A stretch of 60,133 bases of DNA, counting the filler, from Sphacelaria rigidula (Eukaryota): assembly GCA_964200075.2 (NCBI GenBank). It is 7 parts of 7 records of this genome, joined end to end, with 100 filler letters (N's around TTAATTAATTAA, not from the genome) between each part and the next. Parts side by side here need not be neighbours in the genome. Positions count along the whole stretch, not along the records: positions 43,026 to 51,529 come from CAXNAA020010950.1; 6 more parts are not named here. One strand, 5' to 3'. The translations under genes were made by a program, and so were the position numbers. This document shows, in pieces, positions 8,425 through 58,765 of this stretch (position 1 is the stretch's first letter; each line of letters begins with the position of its first letter). The notes beneath the pieces were generated by a model. The model did no database searches. It was not told the DNA's origin and saw only the letters and a program-made list of their open reading frames with translations.

Positions 8425-8505
<81 letters not shown>

Positions 8506-11619: not shown

Positions 11620-14600
11620 ATTGCACCAACGAGGGCTGTTCCGCGATATGATTGTACGGTTTGAAAGGCTGCACGGCAAAGTTCTACTCCTAGCACACCA
11701 GGGCGAGATTGGTAGAATGTGGTGAAGTCTGGCGACGAGGGCTGCCTCCAGCATCCATCGAATGGTTTACCAGGAAGCAAGACGAGAAGTTCTGCTCATA
11801 ACACGCCAGGGCGGGAACGATTCAAGTAATGAAACGGTGCGGCGAAGTGGGCTGTCTCAAGCAACAGTCGTATGGTATAGCAGAAATCAGGAAGGCGGAG
11901 TTCTGCTCCGAGCACGCCAGGGTGGGAATGGTGAATGTGAGGAGCAAGGGGTGCGGAGACGAGGGCTGTTTCAGGCAACCGTCGTATGGTGTGTCAGGAA
12001 GCAAGAAGGCGGAGTTCTGCTCTGAGCACGCCAAGGCGGGAATGGTGAATGTGTTGAGCAAGAGATGCGGCTACGAGGCGTGTCTCAAGCAACCGTCGTA
12101 TGGTGCGGCAGGAACCACGAAAGCAGAGTTTTGCTCCGAGCACGCCAGGGCAGGAATGGTAAATGTGATGAAGAAGAGATGCGGCTACGATGGCTGTCTC
12201 AAGCACCGGTCGTACGGTGTAGCAGGAAGCAAGACGACGGAGTTCTGCTCCGAGTACGCAAGGGCGGGAATGGTAAATGTGTTGAGCAAGAGGTGCGGCT
12301 ACAAGGGGTGTCTCAAGCAACCGTCGTATGGTGCGGCAGGAACCAGGGAAGCAGAGTTTTGCTCCGAGCACGCCAGGTGTGATGAAGAAGAGATGCGGCA
12401 ACGAGGGTTGTCTCAAGCACCGGTCGTACCGTGTAGCAGGAAGTAGGACGGCGGAGTTTTGCTCCGAACACGCCAGGGCGGGAATGATGAATGTCATGAA
12501 GAAGAGATGCGGCTACGATGGCTGTCGCAAGCAAGCGTCGTACGGTGTAGCTGGAAGCAGGACGACGGAGTTCTGCTCCGAGCACGCCAGGGCGGGAATG
12601 GTCAACATGGTGAGCAAGAGATGCGGCGACGAGGGCTGTCTGAAGCTACGGTTATATGGCGTAGCTGGAAGCAAGACGGCAGAGTTTTGCTCCGAGCACG
12701 CCAGGGCGGGAATGGTCAATGTTGTGAGCAAGAGATGCGGCTACGATGGCTGCCTCAAGCAACCGTCGTACGGTGTAGCAGGAAGCAAGACGGCGCAGTT
12801 CTGCTCCGAGCACGCCAGGGCGGGAATGGTAAATGTTGTAAAGAAGAGATGCGGCTACGATGGCTGTCTCAAGCACCGGTCGTATGGTGTAGCAGGAAGC
12901 AAGACGGCGGAGTTCTGCTCCGAGCACGCCAGGGCGGGAATGGTGAATGTGTTCAACATGGGGTGCAGAGAGGAGAGCTGTCTCAAGCGAGCGTCGTATG
13001 GCGTAGCAGGAAGCAAGAAAAGGATATTCTGCTCCAAGCACGCCAGAGCGGGAATGGCAAATGTAGTGCACAAGAGCTGCGGTAAGGAGGACTGTCTCAA
13101 GCAACCGTCGTATGGTGTAGTAGGAAACAAGAAGGCGGAGTTCTGCTCCGAGCACGCTAGGGCGGGGATGGTAAATGTAGTGCACAAGAGGTGCGGTAAG
13201 GAGGACTGTCTCAAGCAAGCGTCGTATGGCGTAGCAGGAAGCACGACGGCGCAGTTCTGCTCCGAACACGCCAGGGCGGGAATGGTGAATGTGAGGAACA
13301 TGGGCGGCGTAGACGGGGGCTGTCTCAAGCAAGCGTCGTATGGTGTAGCAGGAAGCAAGACGGCGGAGTCCTGCTCTGAGCACGCTAGGGCGGGAATGGT
13401 GAATGTGTTCAACATGGGGTGCAGAGAGGAGAGCTGTCTCAAGCACCGGTCGTATGGCGTAGCAGGAAGCAAGAAAAGGGTATTCTGCGCCGAGCATACC
13501 AGAGCGGGAATGGTAAATGTAGTGCACAAGAGGTGCGGTAGGGAGGACTGTCTCAAGCAAGCGTCGTATGGCGTAGCAGGAAGCAAGGAGGCGGAGTTCT
13601 GCTCTGAGCACGCCAGGGCAGGAATGGTGAATGTGAGGAACAAGGGCTGCGTAGACGGGGGCTGTCTCAAGCAAGCGTCGTATGGTGTAGCAGGAAGTAA
13701 GAAGGCGGAATTCTGCTCTGAGCACGCCAGGGGGGGAATGGTGAATGTGGTGGACAAGAGATGCGGCTACTGTGGCTGTCTCCAGCACCGGTCGTACGGC
13801 GTAGCAGGAAGCAGGACGGCGGAGTTCTGCTTCGAGCACGCTAGGGCGGGAATGGTCAACGTGATGGACAAGAGATGCGGCGAGGAGGGTTGTCTGAAGC
13901 GACGGTTGTATGGCGTAGCTGGAAGCAAGACGGCAGAGTTCTGCTCCAAGCCTGCCAGGGCGGGAATGGTCTATGTTGTGAAGAAGAGATGCGGCTACGA
14001 TGGCTGTCTTGAGCAAGCGTCGTATGGTGTAGCAGGAAGCAAGACGGCAGAGTTCTGCTCCGAGCACGCCAGGGCGGGAATGGTGAATGTGTTTAACAAG
14101 GGGTGCAGAAGCGAGGGCTGTCTCAAGCAAGCGTCGTATGGCGTAGCAGGAAGCAAGAAGAGGATATTCTGCTCCGAGCACGCTAGGGCGGGGATGGTAC
14201 ATGTAGTACACAAGAGCTGCGGTAAGGAGGACTGTCTCAAGCAACAGTCGTATGGTGTAGCAGGAAACAAGAAAGCAGGAAACAAGAAAGCAGAGTTCTG
14301 CTTCGAGCACGCTAGGGCGGGAATGGTAGGTGTGAGGGACAAGGGCTGCGTAGATGAGGGCTCTCATGCCAACGTCGTATGGTGTGGCAGGAAGCAAGGC
14401 GGAGTTCTGCTCTGAGCACGCCAGGGGGGGAATGGGGAATGTGTTGATCAAGAGATGCGGCTACGAGGGGTGTCTCAAGGAACGGTCGTATGGCGTAGCA
14501 GGAAGCAAGAAGGCGGAGTTCTGCTCCGGGCACGCCAGGGCGGGAATGGTCAATATGGTGAAGAAGATATGCGGCTACGTTGGCTGTCTCAAGCAAGCGT

Positions 14601-15682
14601 CGTATGGTGTAGCAGGAAGCACGGCGGCAGAGTTCTGCTCCGAGCACGCTAGGGCGGGAAAGACGAATATGTTGAACAAAAGATGCGGCGACGATCGCTG
14701 TCTCAAGCAATCGTCGTGTGGTGCAAAAGGAAGCAGGACCGCGGACTTCTGCTTTGACCACGCTGGGGCGGGAATGGTAAATGTGGTGAACAAGAGGTGC
14801 GGCGATGAGGACTGTCTCAAGCAACCGTCGTATAGTGCAGCACAAACCAGGAAGGAAGAGTTTTGCTCTGAGCACGCCAGGGTGGGAATGGTGAGTGTGG
14901 TGAAGAAGATATGCGTCTTCGAAGGTGGTCTCAAGCACCAGTCGTATGGTGTAGCAGGAAGCAGGACGGCGGAGTTCTGCTCCGAGCACGCCAGGGCGGG
15001 CATGATGAGCAAAGAACATGAGAAATCTGGCACGAAACGATGCTTCGAGCTGGGTATCTTCCAGAGGCACAACCTTCACGAGGCGCAATTCTTCCGACAG
15101 CATGCCACCACACACAACACAGCAGCAGTGCGCAACACCGCAGAAGTCAACGCTAGGGAGATCAACTCCGGCCTTAGCCCGGCGGAGGATGGTCGAGGAG
15201 GCGTTCCTGATGTACTTGAAACAAAACGCAAACGCCCAGCATGCTTGGGCTCTGGTTCAAGGCCCGTGATCGGTACTTGTCGTAGTGTCTGCCCCAATCC
15301 CAGGCGAGATGGCACAGCAGTACCATTACTCTCCGTACAGATACCCTCAGGATCTGATGGTAGGGTGTCGTTAGAGGCAAAGGCAGTGTCAGGAATAAAG
15401 GTAGAGCCGGCAGTCCCATTTTCACCGCACTGTGTCCCTACGGCCGGAGGGCGTAAAGAACAGGCTCCCAGTTCAAGTGGGACGGGTGGCGTAAGTTGTT
15501 GTGGTAGCTCCAGTTGCAGTGGTGCCGGTATGAGAACGGGATGGCTCGATGAGTCGTCAGCAGAGGTGTCTGGTTGCCTTGGCGTGTTCGATAATATGCC
15601 AGATGAAGATGCAGGGGAGAATTCGAGCGTGAAGTTTGAGCTAGGAGTGTCGAGTATCCCTCTTTGGACGTCCGGCAGTTGA
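11620..15682 (+). pseudogene. EsV-1-7 cysteine-rich tandem-repeat protein gene (~30 x 38 aa), frameshifted; unique Ser/Gly-rich C-terminal tail
   Basis: The 114-bp unit encodes KRCGYDGCLKQPSYGVAGSKTAEFCSEHARAGMVNV (C-X4-C-X16-C-X2-H), which matches the EsV-1-7 motif as I recall it. The gene is split over ORFs 11829.., 12328.. and 14354..15682 by a 14-nt deletion at 12377/12378 and a 2-nt deletion near 14360. Two degenerate units with stops lie upstream (~11620-11828). No introns within the array. Confidence 0.88.
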
Positions 15683-17210: not shown

Positions 17211-17242
17211 ACCAGGGGGGGGGGGGAGGGAGGGGGGTGGGT

Positions 17243-17279
<37 letters not shown>

Positions 17280-25815: not shown

Positions 25816-26540
25816 CGGAGACCAATCCCAAAATAGATGTACTGTCTGGAGTGCTGTTCAAAGAGATGATCTACAGAGCCTGCGCACCGGAGACTGAACA
25901 ACGCTAGATAGGAAGATCCAAAAAAGCAAGAACAAAAAAGGACAACCTGATGGTAACGAGGAGGGAAAGCGGGGAACTATGACCTTCCTCGGGTTCCAGT
26001 CAAGTAGCATCGTCATGGAAGCACAACAGACAGGGCATGTCTAGCCTACACACGGCGTATAGCGCTATCAGCAAAAAACAGAATCTACGCTAATTCGGAG
26101 GTTATCCGCGTATTCCTACATCTGGGTATGTCAGGAGAAGGGTGGGAGAGGCCTATGTTGTTCAGTCTTCCGTGCTGTCTTTGATTTAGGCCAAGTACCT
26201 CCGGACGTTCAGAGATGGCCCTAACCAAACACAGTGGAGATTACCTTCGCATAACAACCCAATTGGTGTACTCGCACGCTACTCTTAGCACAGTTGGAAA
26301 CACACGGCGAACGGGGAAAACACTATTTTTTCGTGGTTCAGGACATGTGCGTTTGTGAGTGTGGGTGTGTTTGGGGAGGGGGGGGGGGGGGGTTCGCACA
26401 CAGTTTTTGTCCCTGGAGCCATTTTGCGGGGGGCGATAATTTCATCTTTTTTTTTTTTTTCAANNNNNNNNNNGCAAAAGGCGCGGAAGGGGGGAACAAC
26501 TGTGTTTTTTGGGGGGGGGGGGGGGGGGTGTGGGGGGGGT

Positions 26541-26573
<33 letters not shown>

Positions 26574-28813
26574 TTCGCACACAGTTTTTGTCCCTGAAGC
26601 CATATTGCAGGGGTCGATAATTTCATCATTTTCTTTATTTTCAAATCATACTTTCATCGTGTCCGGTTTGTTCTTGTTCTTTCTTCTCCTCCCCTTTACT
26701 TTTTTTTCGTTTCGTCTCTGGTATATATTGTCTGGTTCACCTCCATGCGTTCGAAGTTTTATTTTCCCCTTCTTGACGTCTATGTTGACGGAGCGGTTCT
26801 GTTCTGTTTACCTTATGGACGCCCATCTCGTGAACACGATTGGATCTCTCATGAATAAGTTAATATGTGATTATCATTCATTCACTCAATCAATCAGGTT
26901 ATGCTGTGTGTTATAGGATGTCAGCTACTATTCAAATAAAAAATGATGAAAACAACGAAGAAAACTCATCACCCGGTATTACGCATAAATCTGGTATTTT
27001 GTATATTGTTTCTACAATGCAAACAATAAATGCTCGTTCGTTGACCCTCTTGAAAAAATCGTAAAAACAAGTTGTTCAATTGGTATTATAAAAATAGATA
27101 TTGAAAACTCAAGTACAAAATTATGCAGCTACAGTAAGAGGGGATCACGATTGGAAGGGAAAATCTACCGGGTGAAGTCAGCCATTACGAGCAATGGCCA
27201 TTGATATAACCAATCAGGCAATTAAAACTCGTCTGCTCACTCTACTGTTTTGCAAAAGCTAACTGGTGTGTTCAACAGTGGCTAGGTGAATAAAACAGCG
27301 CGGTTCGGAACAAAAACACTTGCAGGATGTTTGCGATTCCAAGACAGTGATCAAAGACTGAACGGGGGAGTGTCTGCATAGAAAAAACATCAATCAAAAT
27401 CGAAATATACAAACTAGCAGGGCGCTGAGACTCGCACGTTGCCTTGAATCGCAACCAAACTGCTCTAAAAATCTGGAGCCTCCACGAAGACTCACCTGAT
27501 GCCTCAAAAAAAAAAATGTATGGAGTTTAATCAAAACACACACTGTGAGAGCCTCCCACGATCGTGAGGGTGCGGCAGAATACTGCGAGATGCAAACAAA
27601 TACTTCAAGTGCGAGGAAATGCAGCATCGCGTACAGGCACCCACAACAGGATACGCGCGCACAGACAGGTAGCCGGAGCCTGCTATAGGATACAAAGTGT
27701 GTGACCGAGTACGCATGGTTTCTGTACTGGGTGAGCATCAGCAAAACGTGGGTGTGAGATTCCGTAGCCTTCCCGTTTTCACCATATGGAACTTTGACAC
27801 CTTTTGTGTTATGCAGCCTTTCCAAAACATTCGTTGCAGCGCCATTTCTTTTCGAATCGAAGCCAATGCGAGCCACGTCACATGCGGCGGATCCTGAACT
27901 ACCATGAGAGCAATGAACCAATGTTAGAGAGTGGGTGTAACTTTCTTGGTCGGCGTTTGACTCGCTAGGCCCCGGTGTGCTTTGTTGGGTGTTGGTCACT
28001 ATGGGTCCGTATCGCATACGTATCAGACGCATTTTTTTCCCGCTGCCGATGCGGAATCTAACGGCAACGTGAAGGACACAAAAGCGAAACGTAAATTACG
28101 ATTTTGATTTCGGTTGTAAGTTGTATCGATACGCGCCCTGAACGTCTATGCTGATTTTTCGCCCCTTCTCTCATCACAATGCATGAGGTGACCACGCAGA
28201 GCTAGTAACCTACGCAGAAAGTGCGCATTAATAGATATCTCCGGTGGCACCGAAGAGCCAACCACGAACGAAACTGTACGGCCACGTGAAATAGGACGGG
28301 ACATCACCCACCATCTGCATCGGCTTCGCCTTGCCTGTCGTATTGATAACCTTGGCCGCACTCAATGAATCATGCTAACGGCGACAACAACAGCGACAGC
28401 AACAGCAACAACAACGACGACGACGACGACAAGCAGCGAGCGGCAAAGGTGAGGGACAAAGGAAACGATGTCACTAGCAAAAATGTCGCGCATGGCACGA
28501 TATACCCACATACACATTCGCGGCTCCAACTTCTCCCTTTCCTCAGAACGATTCCGTGGTCTGGACGCGTTGTTCATGTTTTTTCAATCACTCCTGCTGC
28601 TAACGCAGCTTTTCACAGAGGCCTTCATGCTGACCTATTGCTGGTGTTCGGTGAGTGTGTCAAACTAGTTCTAGAATTTAAATTAATGCGGAAGAGAATG
28701 GGGCGGGGCAGGGACTGAGAGATGTGCCGGCCCCCAGTCAGACTGTGAGATAACAGAATGCGTTCATCTTCATGAGTGCGAAATGTTTCATGTCATGATT
28801 TGATGAAGAGTAC

Positions 28814-33939: not shown

Positions 33940-34320
33940 CTGCAGATGCTGGGTGTTGCGACCGCCTCCAATAGTTCCTGGTTTTCATCGTGTGAGACAC
34001 AAGTAGGAACGTCAGACACTAATAAACAGCTCCCCGGTTTTTCGCCTTGACGGGAATTGTGAAGGGCAACTGCAGCCATGCTGACGCCATTACAGTACGC
34101 AGCTCCTGAATATCTCTTGGTCGAAAATAGTGGGCAAGACGGAGATGGGGAATAATATAAACGGTATCTCGACGGGAAGATGTTATTATTTCGCACTCTA
34201 CGGGACCAATGAAATATAACTTGGAGTGGAATTTCGATCCCTCTTCCTATTTTGTACATCAAGGAGAAACAAGTCCTGGATATGGTATTTTCCACCAGGG
34301 GGGGGGGGGGGGGAACTCAT

Positions 34321-43258: not shown

Positions 43259-46200
43259 GACCCTGAGGGTACTGAATCCCTTCAGTGGTCCAACTCGTTG
43301 TTCAACGAACTGTTCGACGAGGAGCTGGATCTTTGCCCCGAGGTAGTGGCAGAAATTTACGGTACCCTGGAGGAAGGGGTGGTATCGCTCGAGAGCCTGC
43401 AATCTCCGCTTTGCGGAGATTGGCTGTCGTTCGGAGACAGCTGCTACGCCAAGAGCACGTACTTGGATCTAGCCGTCGGCTGGGAACATGCCGCGACTAG
43501 GTAAAAGCCCATGGGCTAGCTCCCATGTAGAGGATAAAAGCTGTATGCGTGTGTGCATGGTTTGTCGTGAGGATGATGACTTGAACCCGGCGACGCGGCA
43601 TCGCTCGTGGGTGTGATGTAGGTTGCCATCAAACGATGCAAATGTATCCTCCGATGATGGTAGTTTTCACCTCGGACGCGGAAAGCGCAAGTGTGTCTAT
43701 TTACCGGTATAAAATGTGATTTCACGTCCATCGCGCTCACATGTGCATGCTTCATCAGGTGTGAACTCTCTACTGACTCTACCTGCGGGTGGCCAACTGG
43801 TCCCTCTTTAGTTGCAATATTTGCACAGCAGTTAGTCGTGTCTTCACAACACATTACACGGGCGAGCGTCGTGTGTTCAATCTTCGGTCTGTTAGCTGGC
43901 GTAGGTAAATAAAGCCTCTGTCCATACCTTGAGTGTTTCAATGTTCTTACCCGACAAGACAAAAGAGGGCAACACAGGAGCACCCGACATATTTTTGCAC
44001 CCTCCTCCAGATGCAAAGAGTTAGGGGCAAGACTTGTGAGCGTGGAAAGCGAAGAGGAGAACGAGTTCGTGTTGCTGAATCTCCTGTGGATCGGATTTTT
44101 GGGGGAATCGTATATGGGTGAGAAATGCTGCATACATATAACCTAATTTCAACTTGAATAAGGGTGCTGATCATGTTCGTGGGTACGGAGATCGAGACGA
44201 TTGCTTCGCGTGTTTGAATGACTCGATAGCCTCTTGTACAACTGCCGCGCAGTGTAGTACGGGACAAGATGAAAATGATTCAAGATACACACATATTATT
44301 AAACGCACCCGCAAACGCTTGCAGGTCGTCTTCCCAGAAGAGAGATGTATAGACTATCAGGAAGTAGAGGAGAGAAGAGGAGAGAGAGCGTTGGGTACCA
44401 TAAACGGATCCCCTAGCCCAAAATATATCCCCTCCTACAATACATACAGGTGTAGGCCTGTGTACCGTGAAGAATGTTCCTGAGAAAATGAAGGTCTACC
44501 TAATAGGCTGATATCTTTGGCCAATACCCATAGATATGAGAATTACCAACTCAAGCGTCCCACACCCTCCCTTGGTCCTGCTCCGTATCAACGAAATGGC
44601 CAACGGTTCACAACTATATTACCAAGAACTAAGTAAGAAAATCCGGTCCCGCCGAGAAGAAAACTTACTCAGCCGCGCACAGGCGCCGCAAAATCACCTT
44701 CAAAGCAATAAAAAAGAATAAGAGTCGGAATCCTGTCCTCAAAACGTCACGCATGTTAGCCCTTTCGCGTAGAAGAATGTTTGCGCGGTTCAGTACAAAA
44801 CAAATTACCTCTCCCAAAAATCGACAAAAATGAAGCAGCTAACACGGATGTAAACTACTTAGCCTTCTTGATATTCATAACGAAATCCCTGTGGTACTCG
44901 AAACTCAGTTTAGCCAAAGCCTTGGTCATCATGCCCTCATGTTCTTCTGACCGTATGTATTCGAACCGAATTTTACCATCACTAACTAGTCCACGCAGAA
45001 AATGATGGCGTACATCAATATGTTTACTCTGAACACTACTCAACGGGTTGTTGGCCAGTTGAATGGCACCCTGGTTATCTTCAAACACCGTAGTGCTCAT
45101 CTCCTCGACATCCGGCTGACTGAATCTGAAAATACCCCGCACCAACAGCACCTCTTTGGCCACCTCGCCAGCTGCTACGTATTCTGGTTCACTACTGGAC
45201 AATGAGACATCGCCCTGGGTTCTCGATACACCTACCACAATCGCACCACCAAACAGCAAAACACCCCCTGTTACAGAACGCCGTTCCTCCGAATTAGCAT
45301 AGTCCGCATCGGCGTACGCCACTAGTCTCTCTTGCCTACCACGTTCGTACGTGATACCTAAATCGCGTGTGCAATTTACGTACTCCAGGATGCGTACCAC
45401 CCTCAGCCAGTCATGATGTGTGCAATCATGACTGTGTCGCAACACTTCCCTCACAGGGTCCGCGATGTCGGGGCGAGTGTTATTTATTGGCCAGCCGCAT
45501 TAACGCTCCCACCGTCTGCCTATACGGCACATCCACCTCAGATTCCCCCTTTTTTACCTGTGTCTTCTTTGTTGTTGAGACAAATACGGGGGTATGGGCT
45601 GTGCGCGTGATATCAAACTTGTCCATGATTTTCTCGACAAATGCAGACTGAGAAATCTTGATTGTACAATTTTCCCAGTTGCGCTCGTACGCACGACCCC
45701 CGTAAAAAGCCAGTTCTCCCGGATCCTTTGTTGGAAACTTCGTTGCCAAAGCCTCGTTGGTCTTGTTACATTGTTTCTTGTTACACACGATAAGAAGTCA
45801 CCAACGTGCACGGTGAGTAGTGCCTTCAAGTCATTTCCCTCCGTCAACCTGGAAGTGCATGGTTCGGTCATGCACTGCTCAAACCCGTATTCCTTGAGAT
45901 CTGTCACAAGCTCAGCGTGTCAAGCTTCACCTTCTTTTATGAGGCCATAAAGAACCTTCAAGACTTTCACGAATCGTCCAGACAAATCTCCACAGTCGTC
46001 AGTTGAACGTACGTATATCTCCTCCTCAAGGGGTGGCTGTATGCATGCTCGCTCTACATGCAAGTGGTGCATCTTGAGGTTATTTTGGCAAGCATACACA
46101 GTAAGGACTGATGGTGTGAGACTGAGACTAGGTGGAGTCATGGCAAAAGTGTATTCAAAATCAAAATACCAGGTTGTTGTAGGTTACACAGACACACGAA

Positions 46201-49200
46201 CCTCGCCTTGGGCTTGGTCACAAACCCGTTCTGATCTGTCTTCCAACTGAAAAGACATTTCGTACCAATGGCTTTACGACCCCCCGGAAGCTTATCTACC
46301 AGTTCAAAAGTATCTTTTTCTAGTCGACCTGTGAACTCACTGCGCATTGCGTGCTCCCACCGTATTCGCCTCTTTGACTTTACTAGTTGACGTCGCGTTT
46401 TCGGTGCCGGCTCTATATCTGTTAAATGTATCCGTTTCATTCCATCTCCCCGCCTTTGCCACGAAGGTTACACATGAACTGGCGAAGTAGATGCTGCCAT
46501 GTAGACCCGCCAGTCGTGCCAACAAGCTGCCCTCTAAAGCTCGGCTTTGCTGTCGAGTGCGTCCAAGTACACGCGGTTCAGGGTCAGGGGAGTTCATCCC
46601 CGCCTCGCTAATGTTGATGTTGTCCAGCTGACCGCCTTCCATTATCGGTGATGCTTGCTGTTGCTGAACGCGAGTTTGTTGCCGGGGGCGACCGAGTGCA
46701 CGCGGTGCTTGATCACTCGTCTAGCGGAAGGTGGTGTCCCGTGCAGCATCAGGTTCACCATCCTCACCCTCCCCGCTTGATGATTCATCACCCGAGGATG
46801 GCTTTACCAGGGATGTTTGTATACTGCCCTCCCTGATCGAGGATGTATATTCTTCGGTGGGATCAACATCGCTGGTATCTTCCCTAACTCCGTCGTCGGA
46901 GTTGACCTCTCCGCTTGTACCCAGCGAAGTACCCCTCCCTCCCAGGGAAGGAGAAACTTCTTGCTGCATGGATACAGAAAGTTGTTTCCATGTCACATTA
47001 CGTATCGTGATTACGTAACGACTCTTTGTTAGCACGCGCATGGAATCACGAGGATGATCTTGGGGGGGGTCCAAGATGAACACATTTTTGTGCCTTGGCT
47101 ATAGATTCCGAAGTACGTTGCTGTTTGCAGTATCCCGGCTTGAAAAACGGCAATAACGTGAGTTTGGAAACTACTCCGTGAAACATCTCGTTCGGTAACT
47201 GCATCCCAGGGTTAGCAGTCGTTGCAGCTCGGTTCAGGGCGTCGGCGGCAAAATTAATAGATTCAGCCCACATCGATCCCGGGACGTCAACGCTGTACAA
47301 ACGGCCAGCATCTATCCTAGCCGCCATTGCGATTGTCTCGAACATCTCAATTATACGTTCTGCCACTCCATTGTATTGCGGGCTGTCCGTTGGAGTGAAC
47401 AAATGCTTGATACATCGTTCCCTGCATAGGTCACTAAAACCTCCCTCGAACTCCCCACCGGAATCGCTGCGTGCACATTCCACAATTGAGGGAATACCAT
47501 CTGCTCTAACATCTGCCAAAAACAGCTTGAAAAGTGCTGTTGTATCTGTCTTCTGGCGTGCAAAGTACACCCAAAATCTTCGCGAGAAATCGTATGGGAT
47601 CAACATGAAGTACCTTCTACCACCCAGACTCTGTACACTCTTGGGTCCACACTGATCAACAAACACACGTTGTAGTCTCTTCACTGCACGCGTGGTCGTC
47701 TCCCTTGGAATCGGCCGTCGTAGGCCCTTCGCCAGCGAACACCCATGGCATGGCTCCAGCTCTCCCTCAAGCACCACACCAATAGCCTCAGCCGTTTCTA
47801 GAAACAGTACCTCGTTCAGGTGACCGTACTATTGGTGGAACAAATTAATGTTGACGGGGCCATTGACGGGTAAAAAGCCAAGGGCTAGCACAGCATTGGC
47901 AAACTCGTTTTCGGGTGAATCAAACTCACCGTCCAACGAGCTTGGGGACGACGAGAGGCGAGTAAAACGGATTGCGTTCATGTTCCCTTCGCAAGGGAAA
48001 ATCAAGTCCTGCCCATTATTCATGGGTACACGTACTCCTGACGTATGTACCAGTGGTGGGTGGTCATTGTCAGCCGCCACCATGATGGGAAAAAGGTTGA
48101 AATCTAGCATAGGTACATGTGCTACTTTTCCGACATGTAATCGGAACTTAGAACCGCCAATCTGGAAAAGTAAAGCAAAGCTTCCATACCCCTCGATGGG
48201 AATTGTCGCACCATTTGCGATGGTCAACCCGACGTTACCGTTTGCAATGGTCAACCTGACGTTACTGTCGGTCTTGACATCATCGGACATACCCTCCTTC
48301 ACAGTAGTAGTCATACACGACGACCCACCGTCCGCTATCCATATTTCACCCCCCTCATGCTTTGCTTGTACCAACATAGCCTTTTCCCTGGACCCAATCA
48401 ACGATACAATCTCGCCTGATGCTTCTTGTGCAATGAACATCCCGCTGATGTGGTTGAATCGCACGTCTTGTACTACCAGGGCTGATGTCTCCGGTCTAGG
48501 ACAGTCATTCGCAACATGACCAAGCTGGTCACACTTGTCACACTTCGCCTTCGGATAGTAGCGGCTTGTGTGTCCAGGTTCATCACAGCGCCAACACTTT
48601 CGAGTTTCCAATCTTGACGCAGGCGGTACAGAACTCCCTGGTTTCGGTGCCGTCGTCGGAGCAGAAGTCGATGTCGGCTCGTTGTTGTTGTTATTGGTCC
48701 GGCCGGAGTGATTCGCTCGCCCCCTGCCGTTGCCGAATTGTTGTTGATTGTTGTTGAGAAGGAACGTAATGAGCGCCAGAATGTTGGAGGTGTCTCTATT
48801 AGGAGTAGGAACGGTGCTCCGTCTCGAAAGGGATGCGTGGTCAATGGTCAAACGACTAAGGCAAGCAACACATGAGAACGCCCCCCCCCTGCCGTTGCCA
48901 CCACCACGCTTGCCCCGACCAGTACCGCGGCCGGTCGCGGCGAACAGAGCACTGCTGCTGCCTCCCTTCCCGGTCGGTTTCAGCGACAAGTATTTGCCTC
49001 TGACAGCCGCTCTCATTTGCGCCGAGGCACTTTCGTGCCATTCTTCCGCCCTGTCTCCTGGTCGAACACCGCCAGAGCGTGTTCGGCCACCGAGGTCAAA
49101 GCCAACTCCCCTGGTCGTTGCTCCGTCTCGAAAGGGATGCGTGGTCAATGATCACACGACTAAGGCAAGCAATAAATGAGCACGCCCCACCCCGCCCCCC

Positions 49201-51529
49201 CCCCTAGTCGTTGAACTACGTGCAGCCCTGCTGCGTACGGGCCTAGCAACAGTTACTACAGCTGGGTCTACGCCTTCGTGCTCTCCAGCAGCAGCTTCCT
49301 CCTCATCTCCGATAGCACCAGCGTCCCCACGACGCCGCTGTTCTTCAAGCTCATCCCGTTTCCTCGTGTCCTCTCTCATGGATACGATGCTTAGCTGTAA
49401 AGATTTGACTAGCTTCATCAATCGCTTACGGTCTTCAATCTCTTCATGCAATTGCTCTCTCAGAGCAGTAGCATTGGACTCTTCGTCAAATCTTGTCATA
49501 CTAGCGGATCAATCAATTGAGCGCTAGCTAGCGTGTTTGAATGACTCGATAGCCTCTTGTACAACTGCCGCGCAGTGTAGTACAGGACGGGATGAAAATG
49601 ATTAAAGACACACATATTATTAAACGCACCCGCAAACGCTTGCAGGTCGTCTTTCCAAAAAGGAGATGGGTAGCCTATCAGGAAGTAGAGGAGAGAAGAG
49701 GAGGGAGAGCGTTGGGTACCATAAACGTATCCCCTAGCCCGAAATATATCCCTTCCTACAATACATACAGGTGAAGGCTTGTGTACTATGAAGAATGTTT
49801 CTGAGAAAATGAAGCTCTACTAAACAGCCTGATATCTTTGGCCAATACCCGTAGATATGAGAATGACCAACTCAAACATCTCACATCGCGTACCGTGCAC
49901 CTCCTTGAAACGTGGGCTCCCATGCCCGTCGGACGAGCGGAAATACGCGCGTAGTCACCCTGTAATGCAAACACGACCTACAAAGGGCCATGTAGCAGCG
50001 TTAACCTTGGCCACACGACAATCGTCGGGCCTCGGATCCACTCCCCATCGATCGGGTACATGTACCGCGGTTGAATTTTTCACTCGATCAGGTACGCGTA
50101 CTACTTTCGTTCTTCTGCCACCATGCAGAGACCCTCCACGCCGTTCTTGGTTCCAGTGCTTGGCCGAGTGAAAACATCTGGTCGGAAGACGAATCATTCC
50201 CCAGACCGCGCACATCTCAAGCTGCCCTGTCAGATGTAAAAGCGACACATTTTCACCACTAGAGTATTTATTTCACGTCTTTACAGAACCCCCATGATTC
50301 ACCACCATGATCATCAAGCTGGCGGTTGCTGTGTTGATTTTTTGTTGCTCTGCGCCCCAGGTTTGTTGTAGAGAACACCTGATATTATGGTATGCAGGAC
50401 GAACCGGCAAGCATGGAAAAGTCGTTTCAAAATCTTGTCTCTTGGCTACCAAGCGTTATTTTCGCGCGTAAGTCCAGCTTCCCCTTCCGTAGCGGGTGAT
50501 AATGGTTACGTGTATTCAACAATAGCTGCCCATCTGTAAACAACTGATGATAAACGTGCGCATGCGCGCCGCTGCATCCTCCCCATCTCAAAACGTCTTC
50601 GCGCTCGCAAGGCCTCCGCAAGGAAACAGGCGACGGCAACTGGATTTGGTCCGACACGCTGCCGGGTTTCTCGCCGCAAGCATTCGATCCATCGACTAGC
50701 TTTCAGGATTGGGGTGACGGAATCGACGCGTCTTCCTCCTACAGCAGTTCTGGACCGTCGTGCTTGGAGGTTATGCCTTATATGCCTAAGTATTGGAACC
50801 CGTTCTCATGTGAGGTGAGAAGAAAAGCGAACACAGGCTTTTAAGATTACGGAGATGCAAAATTATCTCGTCCAGTGACGGTTATTATTTTGTGGACCAC
50901 CAAAAGCCCACAGACTGGTGCTAAATTTTTTTCCGTGTCGCCATATCCCCCCCCCTCCCCTTGCCTGATGTCCGCCCCCTCCCTAATTGGCAGACCAAGG
51001 CAGATTATAGTGATACAAGGGCGAGTGATCGAACGACCACAGCGTGCGCGGCCAAACAGCCAATTACCGTACAGATGTTTAGGATCAAATGTTTCTTCAC
51101 AACGCCAATTTTTTCTGAGAAAACTGAGTCCGCCTAGTTTGTCTTAGGAATCGACTGCCATCGAAATCATTATCCTCTCTTTGCTGTTCCACGAACAACG
51201 TATTCGTCGTTATCTTGTCATGGTCTTGCTGGAAAAGGTCAATAAGCAGTACGTGTGCGAGAAACCAGCATCCTCGGTCCAGGCCCCACCTTCGCCCTCG
51301 CCCCTGGTTGAAGCGACCCCGACATACTCTCCTATACCCTTCCCGACTCCATCCCCGGTAACCCCCCCTATGTCATCTCCAATACTGCCTTCTACTTCGG
51401 CCCCTGTGGTGCCCCCTACTCTACCCCCGGCGCCCCCCCCTTCATCACCCCCGGCATCATCCTATACTTTAGCCCCAGAGGTACCCCCTACTCCATCCCT
51501 ATTACCCCCCACTACATCGTCTCCACTAT
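43259..51529 (+). CDS. C-type lectin-like domain protein with Pro/Ser/Thr-rich stalk, partial at both ends; exons 43259..43500, 44011..44117, 50612..50814, 51238..>51529
   Basis: Spliced in phase: ...CGDWLSFGDSCYAKSTYLDLAVGWEHAATR-CKELGARLVSVESEEENEFVLLNLLWIGFLGESYMG-LRKETGDGNWIWSD...FQDWGDG...SCLEVMPYMPKYWNPFSCE-VNKQYVCEK-PASSVQAPPSPSP... This has the full CTLD cysteine/tryptophan pattern. Confidence 0.88.
44211..44564 (-). repeat. 3' LTR
   Basis: 354 bp; about 30 substitutions and one 2-bp indel versus the 5' LTR by manual count. Confidence 0.95.
48735..48884 (+). mobile_element. Poly-C-tailed retroposon-like insertion (150 bp) with perfect 15-bp TSD
   Basis: CCCCCTGCCGTTGCC at both 48720-48734 and 48885-48899. 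The insert ends ...GCAAGCAACACATGAGAACGCCCC. Confidence 0.85.
49121..49200 (+). mobile_element. Poly-C-tailed retroposon-like insertion (80 bp) with 13-bp TSD
   Basis: CCCCTGGTCGTTG (49108-49120) and CCCCTAGTCGTTG (49201-49213). The insert is CTCCGTCTCGAAAGGGATGCGTGGTCAATG...ATGAGCACG plus a C-rich tail. Confidence 0.85.
49534..49885 (-). repeat. 5' LTR
   Basis: 352 bp direct repeat of 44211-44564, followed by the TSD TCGCG. Confidence 0.95.
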
Positions 51530-51629: not shown

Positions 51630-52198
51630 AAATGACGAAGGCAAGAAAAAAAGGGGTACCCCCCCCCCCCCCCCAGCGCATGTGCATGCATGTTTGGGTG
51701 ATGAGTAATAATATCGAAATGTCTTGGCATCGACAACGTTTGCCGCTTCGCCACGGCGGTCTAATGGTGCTATAACTTCATCATAAGGTCGGAGAACTAG
51801 GGCCGCAGCTTATAAGAACAAGGCGGCGAGTGTACTGCGTCAGTTGACAGGGGAATCTAGCGGGTTCAATCCCCACACTACCTTGAGCGAAGCCTTCCGA
51901 ACGCTCAAGGCGCCTACCCCACATGACTGCCGCGAGGCGGTCTAGCCGAGCCTCCAGGTAACCGGCACACGAACACACTTACTCGCGGGGTAAGGGTTGG
52001 GTCAGGTTTCCTCCTTCGTTCACGAAAAAATAGAAATCTAAAAGATGGTCGGAGGAAGGTAGGTTTAATCCCCGGCAGACGCGTTTGGCTTTTCCCCCTT
52101 AAACGCGTATAATTTTTGTCGTCAAAAACATGAGAAGGTGAGAAGCAAAAGAGTACAATTTGACGAGAGTCAACCATACCAAAATGCAAAACGCATGC

Positions 52199-52276
52199 CG
52201 GGGGGGAGGGGGGGTACTCATTTGTTGCTTGCTTTCGTCGTTTGACCGTTGACCACGCATCCCTTTCGATACGGAG
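52199..52276 (-). mobile_element. Poly-C-tailed retroposon-like copy
   Basis: The minus strand reads CCCCCCCG-CTCCGTATCGAAAGGGATGCGTGGTCAACGGTCAAACGACGAAAGCAAGCAACAAATGAGTA-CCCCCCCTCCCCCCG. Confidence 0.8.
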
Positions 52277-52764
52277 CGGGGGGGGCGAGGAGAGAGACGG
52301 GTCGATCCCCTGAGACCACGAGCTAGTCCGGAGGAAGAACAGCGTCTTGTCAAGTATGACCAAAAGTAAATGTGCGACCGATATTGCAGCCCAGGGGTCT
52401 CTACATCGTGAGCATAGCGCTTGAGCTGAATATATGCACTCTGTTGACCGTACGTCTACATCTACATCTCGGTACCCATTTTTCGGATTGCTTCCGACGC
52501 ACGTTTGACGCCCAAGATGTTTCAACCTCCCCCCACTAAAAGTATCCAAAATGAGGAAGCCTGCTCCGTATACTCGCCACGGGATACTCGTCCGAATTCC
52601 AAAACTCACAAAACCGGCAACTAGCATCCACTCCATTCAACTACCGTGAAGGAGTCAAGCATTGTCAGAGACGCTGACCCTTACGTTGATCCCCACACTA
52701 GCGGCGAACACAAAGGCCGCATACCGGCAGTCCACGCATGAATCAGCCCACAACCCGCACGTAC

Positions 52765-55700: not shown

Positions 55701-58062
55701 CGATACCCTGCCGGACCATCCCTGAATATTCGGTACACATTTGGGTATGGTTTAGCATGCCAACCAAGAATCTCTCATTTCCGGGTATACCCTAAAGAAA
55801 ACACGATTTGTAAGTTTCGGGTACATCCTGAGGCACAAATAATTCACACGTCACACGGATCATGATCTGTCAGAGAAAAACTGTAAAAAAAGACTCTCGA
55901 ATCTGTTGGTCCAAAACCACACAGGATGTCACCGCGGAATCAGAAAAGCCTCAGCGCAGACTCTGCCCTTCTGGGCGTGCTCGGCGTCCGACGCTGTAAG
56001 GAGCAAACATGAGAAAAGGGGGACCAGCTGATCCGGGTCATGATCCGGATCAACATACTGAGAAAAAGCGATTTGCAGACAGATCATGATCTGTCCGACG
56101 TGTCAAGTAATTCCCCGTAAACAGCGCCCACAACCAATTCGAAACTTCCAGTGGTTGGGCAGTGTGATCTACTACCAATGAACCCCGCGACACTCCAAGG
56201 CTTTTGCACCGAAGCACAAGCGTATTAAGCATGTGCACTCGATACGACGGCGGGGAGAAGCGTATGCACGGACGCCCATTATTGTCGACAACTGTTTCCC
56301 CCCCCGGACATCTGCGGAAGTTTCGGTACTGGCAAGGTACCTGATGACCTCGAATGCTTGCGAGTGCCACGGCGTATACACAAGGCAGCCAAATAGCTCT
56401 CCAAAGTGCCGCGATGCAGTCCGACTGTTTTTCGGGCTTCTCCAAAAAAATGGAGCTTCGGAGAAAAAATCAAGCCGCTTCGTTTTCGGAGAAGTCCGAA
56501 CGCAGAGTCCGCAAAGTCCGAAAAATTCTGACATATCCGAGAAAACAGTGTCCATAACTATGCGCGTAAGACCAACCGTATGTGTAACATGTACGTATTC
56601 TGCTGCCGCTAGGAAGCACCATTAGGGTCCTTTTCCTGGTAGCAGGGTTTTGCGCGAAGATCCCGAAGTCTGGAAATTTGGGCGGAAATCGAAGGGCCAT
56701 AACTTCGCATATTCTGTCGACCCCAGGGGTGAAATGTGAATTTGTTCGGAAGCGTCATCACAACTTTTGTTTTACCATGGAAACGTTGCATCGAGCCCAG
56801 TATTCCCTGCGCGCTTCCCCTACCGCAGCGAGAGCTATGGGTTGCCTCGACACTCGTTATCGTTAGACGACATCACATTAATCCTACAGATGCCTAATTT
56901 TTTCGGAGTGCGGACGAGTCGTTTTGTACTGCCTCTACGGTACCGCTGGGCAGCTCCAGGAAACTTCACTGCGGGTGGCGGGTATTTGAGAGGTACTAGT
57001 TCTAGGTGTATTGAGCACACCGTGCCCAGCACGCGTCAGTGACGAATGCGAGGGCTCCGCGCCCGAAGCATCCGTGGTCATGTTCGGCGCGGCTACGTCC
57101 AGTGCTTGCACCCCAAACGGCACGGTCAAAGTCTATGATCCGTTTGAATATTAGGGAGACGTATCTGCAGGCAGGGCGGAGCCCCCGGCTCAACGCAACC
57201 TCGACGAATTTGGGGCACCGGCGTCATTTATGCGGCGCTCCTACGAAGAAAGCAAAGCGTGCCACGGCTTTTCGCACTGGTGGCAAATGTGTGCTGGGTA
57301 CGGTTAGTGCGTTCGATACACCTGTGTTTGGCTCGCGAGGCTAAGCCCTGTAAGCGCAAAAGACACTCACGTCTTTCTTGCGAAAGGTTTGCACCCCATA
57401 AATACACAGATTTCCAAGTTTTCCGTTGAAATATTCTACGGCCAGGAGCGATTCCAAGGGTCGTGCGAGTATGCAGAGATCAGAACAGATTGAAACTTAC
57501 CAGGAACGCGCCGGTGTATAGATTTAGTGCACGACATACTCCGGAGCTATGTACTCCGAACCCCCGGTCTAGATATTTTATCATGGGCGACTTAACCCAA
57601 TGACTACCAATTATGAGCTCGTCATTGATGGCACCAACCTCTTCGCCGCCTCCAACAGCTTGTTGTTCTCGACCCGCGCTTGCCGTCGTTTACGCTCGAT
57701 TGCCCACCGACCGTACTTCTCCGCTATTTTTCTGAGAGCTGGGAGCGAGAACTGCATTTGCCGAGAAGAAGCGGCCAGGTATTACGGTTGGGGCTTTTAT
57801 TACACATTTCGATCATCGCGTTCGATGAAAGAACAATGCGTCCTGCAGGCTCGCCACTCTTCATCGTTTGCCTGAATTATTTCCCCTCTACAGTGGAAAG
57901 CAGGAAAACAGCTATCGACGTTTGGGAATCGCACGCCTGCGCGGCGGTGTTTTCCATCCCCCAGCGAGGGTTCCTGTGCGTGCGAAGGCTACATATGCAC
58001 ACATTACAGTACGCTTAAGCGTCGCGGCAGCATAGGCTTGGAAGGGGCATACGGATATCGTT

Positions 58063-58103
<41 letters not shown>

Positions 58104-58765
58104 TGACCCGACAAACCCCCCGCGCCGACCCCACCCNNNNNNNNNNGTACGCCTAAGCGGCGGGGCAGCATAGGCGTGGGAGGGGCATACGGATATTTTT
58201 CTGCCCCCCCCCCCCCCCCCTCCCCCACCCCCAGATTCAGGTTAGAAAACGACAGTGCTACCTTAGCGTAGCCCTCGAGGTATAGATAGCTGATGAGGTC
58301 TTGGATAGCTACTTCATTCAGAGTGTGGCCCTGATCGCTGTCAGCATCGCAAAATGCTGCGAGAGCCGCGGAGAGTGCGTAGAGCGGGTATTTCGGGACG
58401 GGGCCATCCGACTTCAGATTTTCTGAGGCGCTGCCTCCCCCTGTTGTCCCTGCTTTTTGGCATATCTGTTCTTTTCCAGTCGATGCTGTGTCTATGTGCA
58501 GACCAGGAATTGACGGTGCCGCTGCCAAGTCGGTGTCGCTTTGTAAATCTGTCGTAGTTGATCCTTCTGATACAGCTGAGGTCGTTTCGACTGTTGTGGC
58601 GTTGTCTTCCATGCCTCGCAAAAAATGGTCCAGGAATACCCATACGTCACCGCTTTCGCATAGAAAGCCCAGCGTTTCTTCTGCTCCCCCTGTTGGAACG
58701 CCGGTGCCTGTGCGGCCTGTTATTTGCTCCAGTGCAATGCGGTATTGCTCCACGGTCACGCGGCT
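52765..58765 (-). CDS. EF-hand-containing hypothetical protein, partial; best-supported exons 53779..53695 and 53134..~52765; probable upstream exons ~58765..58262 and ~57871..57640
   Basis: Splicing AEAGKAFGLSKEQLDTVIDFLDPNKDGN to IDLEELGQAFKKER gives the canonical EF loop DPNKDGNIDLEE. The upstream ORF has an EF-like CDADSDQGHTLNEVAI and ends at a GT donor. Linking all exons into one gene is inferred. Confidence 0.55.
53520..53770 (-). repeat. Tandem duplication (period 126-127 bp) spanning an exon end and splice donor
   Basis: GGTGATTGAGCACCCTG.GGCACTCACATTTCCATCTTTGTTGGGG.CGAGAAAGTCGATAACAGT.TCGAGCTGCTCTTTTGATAAGCC is present twice. Confidence 0.9.

Follow-up and report, generated by a model that had tools for sequence, protein, structure and literature searches.

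What are the two short segments that interrupt the gag gene of a copia retrotransposon in Sphacelaria rigidula, and where do the C-runs at their ends come from? We addressed this question in a window of 60,133 nt from genome assembly GCA_964200075.2, which is the whole stretch of DNA analysed here and consists of seven ~8.5-kb pieces with N/TTAATTAATTAA spacers between them. The initial annotation had described the segments as insertions with one 3' end and a C tail, 150 and 80 bp in length, each flanked by long target-site duplications (TSDs), and had interpreted them as products of a retrotransposition system of the kind without long terminal repeats (non-LTR). The observation is confirmed and the interpretation is supported by the results presented below. 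These segments, together with copies in other contigs, are very probably 5'-truncated copies of an autonomous long interspersed nuclear element (LINE) of the brown-algal RTE-X kind. This LINE has one long open reading frame (ORF) for an apurinic/apyrimidinic (AP)-type endonuclease (EN) followed by a reverse transcriptase (RT), and it ends in a run of C. The ORF reaches to within 5 nt of the 3' end; therefore the core sequence shared by the copies is coding sequence plus a stop codon.

Anatomy of the two inserts

The host copia element occupies positions 44208-49885 on the minus strand, with an LTR pair at 44208-44564 and 49531-49885 (91% identity across 357 nt) and a gag gene with a zinc knuckle. 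The gag ORF at 47829-49151 (minus strand) gave zf-CCHC and Pol_BBD matches. Both inserts lie in this gag and are described here on the plus strand.

Insert 1 (48735-48884, 150 nt) is enclosed by a perfect 15-nt repeat, CCCCCTGCCGTTGCC, found at 48720-48734 as the 5' TSD and at 48885-48899 as the 3' TSD. Insert 2 (49121-49200, 80 nt) lies between CCCCTGGTCGTTG at 49108-49120 and CCCCTAGTCGTTG at 49201-49213, which match at 12 of 13 positions. The two inserts and their lengths can thus be read directly in the sequence as annotated, and so can the TSDs, which vary in length (15/15 and 12/13) and both start with CCCC. The inserts have a common 3' end, ...ATGAG(A/C)ACG, behind which extra C-rich bases follow. 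In insert 1 these are 4 C beyond the TSD (48881-48884), there being 9 C at 48881-48889 versus 5 C in the 5' TSD copy, while in insert 2 they form a C-rich tail of 16 nt (49185-49200). Since the extra bases are absent from the 5' TSD copy in both cases, the C-tail was brought by the element.

The LINE-derived part of insert 1 (48759-48880) comprises the last ~38 codons of the EN-RT ORF, a TGA codon and 5 nt, and the family-derived portion of this insert amounts to ~126 nt. The core of insert 2 (49121-49184) corresponds to the last ~64 nt of the element, with a profile match at 49116-49187 (E = 3.7e-19) and 91-92% identity to insert 1. Insert 1 had been annotated as a family copy over all of its 150 nt, which does not hold for its first 24 nt. 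This GTT-rich stretch (48735-48758) is not family sequence; homology starts at ~48755-48763, and upstream of 48758 public contigs diverge from the window and continue in the LINE ORF. The 24 nt are therefore filler that sits at the 5' junction. Read in frame with gag, they give LNNNQQQF, which resembles the N-run of gag itself 35 nt away, and they may stem from a template switch.

The empty site of insert 1

Together with one TSD, insert 1 adds 165 nt that are stop-free in the gag frame, and a 440-aa stop-to-stop ORF spans the insert, which could mislead gene callers. Translation in this frame shows the peptide GNGRG twice, once on each side of 50 foreign residues, as a result of the TSD. The interrupted gag ORF was used as query in an exhaustive protein search, which identified a fragment of a gag homologue, P0106. 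It aligns with window-ORF residues 39-230 in one high-scoring segment pair (HSP), and the alignment has a 56-residue gap that coincides exactly with insert 1 and its TSD. As far as the protein alignment tells, this gap is the empty site of insert 1, the insert that this comparison covers, and it bears out the view that the host sequence once lacked the segment. For a second homologue, P0185, the regions flanking insert 1 align as separate HSPs. At the DNA level, no clean skip of either insert was found among 15 of 174 joints in public contigs.

The same search revealed traces of the LINE in protein databases. Among the 150 best matches to the interrupted gag ORF in a library of 1.84 billion proteins, 136 by our count, lying at residues ~35-161 of the ORF, were short predicted proteins representing antisense readings of the LINE tail only. 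As a result, spurious ORFs derived from this tail are numerous in public protein sets. A search for gag proteins of near-equal length returned 8 matches, each spanning 8-13% of the query and all of them readings of the LINE tail. The tail explains spurious pieces in brown-algal gene models.

The core sequence belongs to the end of a LINE reading frame

Public metagenome contigs were scanned with a 21-nt core pattern, yielding four loci, and a scanned collection of viral contigs gave no matches. At three of the loci (L001, L002 and L004) the tail is present over 126-135 nt at 87-95% nucleotide identity. In all three a long ORF terminates in the tail, its stop codon preceding a C-run by a few bases, and these C-runs lie at unrelated sites. 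The fourth locus, L003, has 22 nt in common only and was set aside as a probable chance match. The 3' end of L001 shows 95% nucleotide identity to insert 1, and its open-ended ORF, P0001 (683 aa), contains RVT_1 (E = 2.9e-33) and a C-terminal Cys/His motif. The C-terminus of P0001 reads ...GAPSRKGCVVNGQMTKASNK before the stop. The plus-strand translation of insert 1 ends in ...GAPSRKGCVVNGQTTKASNT before a TGA at 48873-48875, 5 nt before the C-tail, and matches the C-terminus of P0001 and of its longer relative P0002. What had been annotated as a 3' core is thus the last ~38-40 codons and the stop codon of a LINE ORF. Because an RT ORF ends in the core, in the sense orientation, the C-run is the true 3' end, and the mirror reading, in which the shared end would be a G-capped 5' end, is excluded.

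A search for longer relatives of the LINE ORF selected 93 proteins from 3899 candidates. P0002 (1360 aa) is 90% identical to P0001 over all of the latter, and P0003 (1328 aa) shows 77% identity to it. Both carry Exo_endo_phos, an AP-type endonuclease domain at approximately residues 142-392, N-terminal to RVT_1. P0004, a chimeric gene model from an Ectocarpus genome, has a C-terminal motif identical to the ending of insert 1 and P0001. The initial annotation had proposed that the longest copies be extended 5' towards a parent RT/endonuclease ORF and placed among non-LTR and Penelope-like clades. By homology, this extension shows the non-LTR origin of the inserts, and the predicted parent is a LINE with an apurinic/apyrimidinic endonuclease (APE-type), not a Penelope-like element (PLE), which would have a GIY-YIG endonuclease C-terminal to the RT and a pLTR or hammerhead: the endonuclease of the relatives is N-terminal and AP-type, and neither a hammerhead nor any other Rfam match was found. 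A short interspersed nuclear element (SINE), whose head would derive from tRNA, 5S or 7SL RNA and contain a Pol III promoter, was likewise not seen, as no Rfam family matched and the sequence upstream of the core is LINE coding sequence in insert 1 and in L001, L002 and L004.

Further copies in the window

A 16-nt core occurs five times in the window with at most 3 mismatches, compared with 0.43 expected occurrences, and five or more were reached in none of 100 shuffles. The copies were checked by BLAST, alignment and a profile search, the profile having been built from copies outside the window. One of the additional copies lies on the minus strand at 52200-52285 (profile E = 1.7e-15), with the core at 52277-52215, the tail at 52214-52200 and an upstream C-run, which is G on the plus strand, at 52278-52285. 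With C-runs on both flanks, the limits of its TSD cannot be set. A plus-strand copy at 659-733 (E = 7.8e-06) consists of a core at 680-718 and a tail at 719-733 behind a C-rich stretch at 659-677. A degenerate copy on the plus strand at 51630-51674, at a contig start, ends in C16 and has 3 mismatches in the 16-nt core and a weak profile score (E = 9.2). Of the further copies beside C-runs in the initial annotation, those at 680-733 and 52200-52277 (minus strand) thus stand, and that at 51630-51674 does so weakly. The annotated short ends at ~1709-1731 and 34298-34320 are limited to 7-8 nt of the core next to a C/G-run, and one of them is cut by the contig end. We also observed a degenerate relic of the LINE tail at 1328-1390 (E = 5.7e-05), which has an internal deletion and no C-run behind it.

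The copies have one 3' end, and their family-derived lengths are ~126, 64, 63 and 39 nt. A tblastn search of the window with the LINE ORF matched tails only and did not find the LINE body.

Abundance, tandem units and a preferred 5' end

Contigs from four public runs, X2 and X6 (organism A), X10 (organism B) and X12 (organism C), were mapped to positions 47000-50000 at a likeness of at least 85%. This gave 31132, 3052, 15911 and 9315 mapped contigs, respectively, and the tail was found in thousands of pieces. Run X2 covers 30 of 30 bins, while the other three runs cover 9, 5 and 7 of 30, essentially the element only. Summed word depth in X2 over 48717-48918 was 1.0-2.1 million versus 31-403 in bins holding copia only; although word depth should not be read as copy number, the difference is marked.

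In these contigs long C-runs occur behind position 48889 of the consensus and before ~48815, and several joints go back by 53-85 nt. Starts directly after C-runs combined with such joints indicate units arranged in tandem and separated by C-runs. This arrangement would be expected if the tails of existing copies served as landing sites for new ones.

The 5' ends of the copies show a pattern of their own. Two of the four good copies in the window (at 49121 and 52277) start within 3 nt of each other at GTGCTCC, matching ~48815-48817 of insert 1, and hundreds of public contigs start at ~48815-48817 directly behind a long C-run. Loose poly-C ends before 48815/48817 were counted in 309 records of X2, in 56+32 of X6 and in 86 of X12. 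From this common start in window copies and contigs it follows that the 5' ends are not simply random. The variable 5' truncation of the initial annotation is therefore upheld as to length and needs qualification as to the ends. The preferred 5' end could be an RT pause site or the start of a discrete tail-only unit of ~65 nt.

The second of these options leads to the alternative that survives best. Short copies such as insert 2, the copy at 52200-52277 and the public contigs from ~48815 would then not be truncated at random and would be full-length, non-autonomous elements of ~65 nt, a kind of micro-SINE or RTEX-N-like derivative that depends on the LINE for mobilisation in trans. The common start, the loose poly-C ends and the tandem joints all agree with this, and non-autonomous RTEX-N families with only the 3' 60-100 bp in common with LINEs are listed in the Ectocarpus library notes (PMC12477816). 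However, the RTEX-N elements in these notes measure 188-607 bp and have heads of their own, whereas upstream of ~48815 insert 1, L001, L002 and L004 continue into LINE coding sequence. A pause site of the RT would look identical, and no promoter or separate transcript is known for such a unit. We consider this explanation unlikely. If true, the ~65-nt trans-mobilised unit would be one of the smallest known retroposons.

C/G tracts

The window contains 25 C/G tracts of at least 8 nt in 60 kb (27 runs before merging). Five of them stand behind the end of the LINE family, one of these showing just 7 nt of the core before the contig end, and one more is the upstream flank of a LINE copy. Another four (2 + 2) stand behind two other repeated C-tailed units, and for the remaining 15 there is no recognisable unit in the window. 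The suggestion that the tails are the source of many of the long C/G tracts is therefore borne out for some tracts and not for the majority; on this window sample the contribution of the LINE is real but partial. LINE tails explain part of the assembly breakage at C/G runs.

With so many tracts present, and every copy located at or in a C-run, the C-run might be the target only, and a tail-less element would have been captured, independently of its endonuclease, where fragile G/C tracts had broken. Both inserts, however, lie in unique sequence with clean 13-15-nt TSDs, 4 and 16 C-rich bases are missing from their 5' TSD copies, and L001, L002 and L004 end in C-runs at unrelated sites. We therefore regard capture at breaks as very improbable.

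An origin of the core from an abundant retro-copied cellular RNA, such as a small nuclear RNA, a spliced leader or the end of a ribosomal RNA, with G's added at the capped 5' end so that the shared end would be a 5' end on the opposite strand, was plausible while only a shared end beside a G-run on the minus strand was known. Rfam gave no matches in the whole window at gathering scores and three chance-level matches (E >= 0.15) over 48650-49300 at E up to 10, and a cellular RNA or ribozyme origin is refuted by the orientation of the ORF, with the core being the sense-strand RT end and the stop lying just before the C-run; we attach next to no probability to it. An assembly or sequencing artefact at homopolymers, for which one could cite contigs breaking at C/G runs and N10 gaps behind some of these, can be dismissed with similar assurance, given that the LINE-tail unit recurs across four runs from four studies and across independent metagenome assemblies, that it has TSDs in unique coding sequence and that an empty site is seen at the protein level.

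A possible mechanism of insertion

The steps by which a LINE of this type could arrive at its targets can be outlined by analogy with the human LINE L1, in which a T-run primes on the poly-A tail. The endonuclease would make a nick at the border of a G-run in the bottom strand, at a place corresponding to the top-strand position just 5' of CCCC. The exposed 3'-OH of the G-run would pair with the oligo-C end of the RNA and prime reverse transcription. We infer such an RNA, ending in oligo-C and annealing to a nicked G-run, from the L1 parallel. Copying would mostly stop early, giving rise to 5'-truncated copies, and a second nick in the top strand, 13-15 nt downstream, would produce TSDs beginning with a C-run. 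Every insertion would leave a new C-run that could be reused as a target, which would explain tandem units between C-runs.

Several points weigh against this account of truncated RTE-X copies. The endonuclease is tied to the window copies via relatives, since L001 stops inside the RT region. TSDs can be delimited in just two copies, and one of these, insert 1, carries at its 5' junction 24 nt of filler from outside the family. Many copies begin at ~48815-48817, which simple random truncation does not predict. The C-tail could instead be made during reverse transcription. Finally, the RTE-X placement is based on the labels in PMC12477816 and on shared features.

A conserved 3' structure that the RT might recognise found no support in the copies. 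The predicted three-helix fold of the last 75 nt has z = -0.76, with 48 of 200 shuffles folding as well, and none of its 21 pairs showed a compensatory change among 6 copies.

A more far-reaching proposal would join several of these observations. The LINE may both target and create G/C homopolymers, each insertion seeding a new site and leading to tandem arrays; together with sister C-tailed families it may be the chief source of the long G/C tracts in brown-algal genomes; the ~65-nt unit with its fixed 5' end may be a minimal trans-mobilised retroposon; and the C-tail may be made by the RT, perhaps through slippage on the G-run primer, and not be encoded in the transcript. The proposal is tentative, and it seems to us rather more likely to be wrong than right.

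Other contents of the window

Two further repeated units with C-tails were found. The first of these, on the minus strand at 26373-26644, consists of two ~90-nt units that are 90% alike and 181 nt apart, each ending in ...CTGTGTGCGAA and a C-run of 15-60 nt; an N10 gap separates the two. These units are unrelated in sequence to the LINE tail. The other, on the plus strand at 58009-58232, comprises two 86-nt units, also 90% alike, 138 nt apart and with an N10 gap between them, which end in ...GGCATACGGATAT..TTCTG followed by C38 or C17. Long homopolymers were also seen at two contig termini with no recognisable repeat unit beside them, namely G32 followed by a long A-run at the contig end at 8427-8505, and G12...G36 at the contig start at 17215-17278.

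The EsV-1-7 family is described as expanded (proliferated) in brown algae (PMC12477816). In the window, three overlapping or adjacent ORFs at 11802-15682 contain dense EsV-1-7 cysteine-rich repeats (up to 17 stretches; E = 8e-251). This region is G-skewed and has a GC content of 57%. The EsV-1-7 repeats, the Ectocarpus homologue of the LINE and the algal labels of the public runs richest in window sequence all make the window look brown-algal.

Comparison with known elements

A LINE in which both tail and target are C/G homopolymers is unusual among retrotransposons. Another element with a homopolymer tail is human L1, in which the tail pairs with a complementary run exposed by the endonuclease nick. 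The TSDs of L1, ~7-20 bp in length, start with the tail homopolymer, 5' truncation is frequent, and filler and microhomology occur at 5' junctions. The window LINE has in common with L1 the homopolymer shared by tail and TSD start, the 5' truncation and the junction filler. It differs in that L1 has an A tail made by polyadenylation, two ORFs and a 3' untranslated region (UTR), whereas here the tail is C and a single ORF ends 5 nt before it. A C-run cannot come from canonical polyadenylation. A very short 3' UTR is a trait of the RTE group, and other LINEs with simple-repeat tails exist.

Such simple-repeat ends are also present in Ectocarpus, where the library notes give (CAA)n, (CA)n or (A)n ends for other LINEs and PLEs (PMC12477816). 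RTE-1/2_Ec32 with (CAA)n and CRE-1_Ec32 with (CA)n resemble the window LINE in having a simple repeat instead of poly-A at the 3' end. In the window LINE the repeat unit is a single C, and tail and target are both homopolymers, unlike in these elements.

The closest counterparts are found in the same transposable-element library. Its notes describe RTEX-1_Ec32 as 'single EN-RT ORF; (C)n 3'' with a 'C-rich' TSD, and RTEX-2_Ec32 as having '(C)n termini/TSD' (PMC12477816; Genome Biol 2025, Supplementary Material 3). The window LINE and its relatives show each of the features in these notes, that is a single EN-RT ORF, a (C)n 3' end and C-rich TSDs, in addition to a brown-algal host and thousands of mostly truncated copies. 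Compared by description, the window element agrees with the Ectocarpus notes in every feature. The RTE-X label is adopted here because of these notes and because of the Ectocarpus homologue P0004, whose C-terminal motif equals that of insert 1. P0004 and P0003 show just 71-77% identity to the lineage nearest the window, and the window LINE may therefore be a sister family of RTEX-1/2_Ec32, or the window may belong to a different species.

The non-autonomous derivatives in the library, RTEX-N1_Ec32 (604-607 bp; 'can be present in tandem') and RTEX-N2_Ec32 (188 bp), have their own 5' heads and share with LINEs only the 3' 60-100 bp, in the case of RTEX-N1_Ec32 the last 60 bp (PMC12477816). Retention of the last 60-100 bp of the LINE, C-rich TSDs and tandem occurrence are points of likeness to what we describe, since tandem joints were seen here too. 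Their 5' heads are unrelated, whereas insert 1 runs on into LINE coding sequence, and the ~65-nt copies are too short to be assigned to either type.

Beyond this library, a literature search on LINEs with poly-C or C-rich tails returned nothing relevant. The RTE-X passages of a ciliate study (PMC9942856) and of a Chlorella preprint (10.1101/2024.02.27.582245) make no mention of tails, and the main-text passages of PMC12477816 at hand do not discuss the C-tail. Going by its supplementary notes, the question raised in the initial annotation, whether a C-tailed family of this type had been described, is answered: elements of this kind have been on record for Ectocarpus since 2025 (PMC12477816). 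Since an RTE-X assignment, a (C)n 3' end, a C-rich TSD and tandem derivatives are already recorded in that curated library, our results confirm known biology and do not define a new system. The C-tailed LINE provides a natural test of how far the pairing of tail and target alone directs integration.

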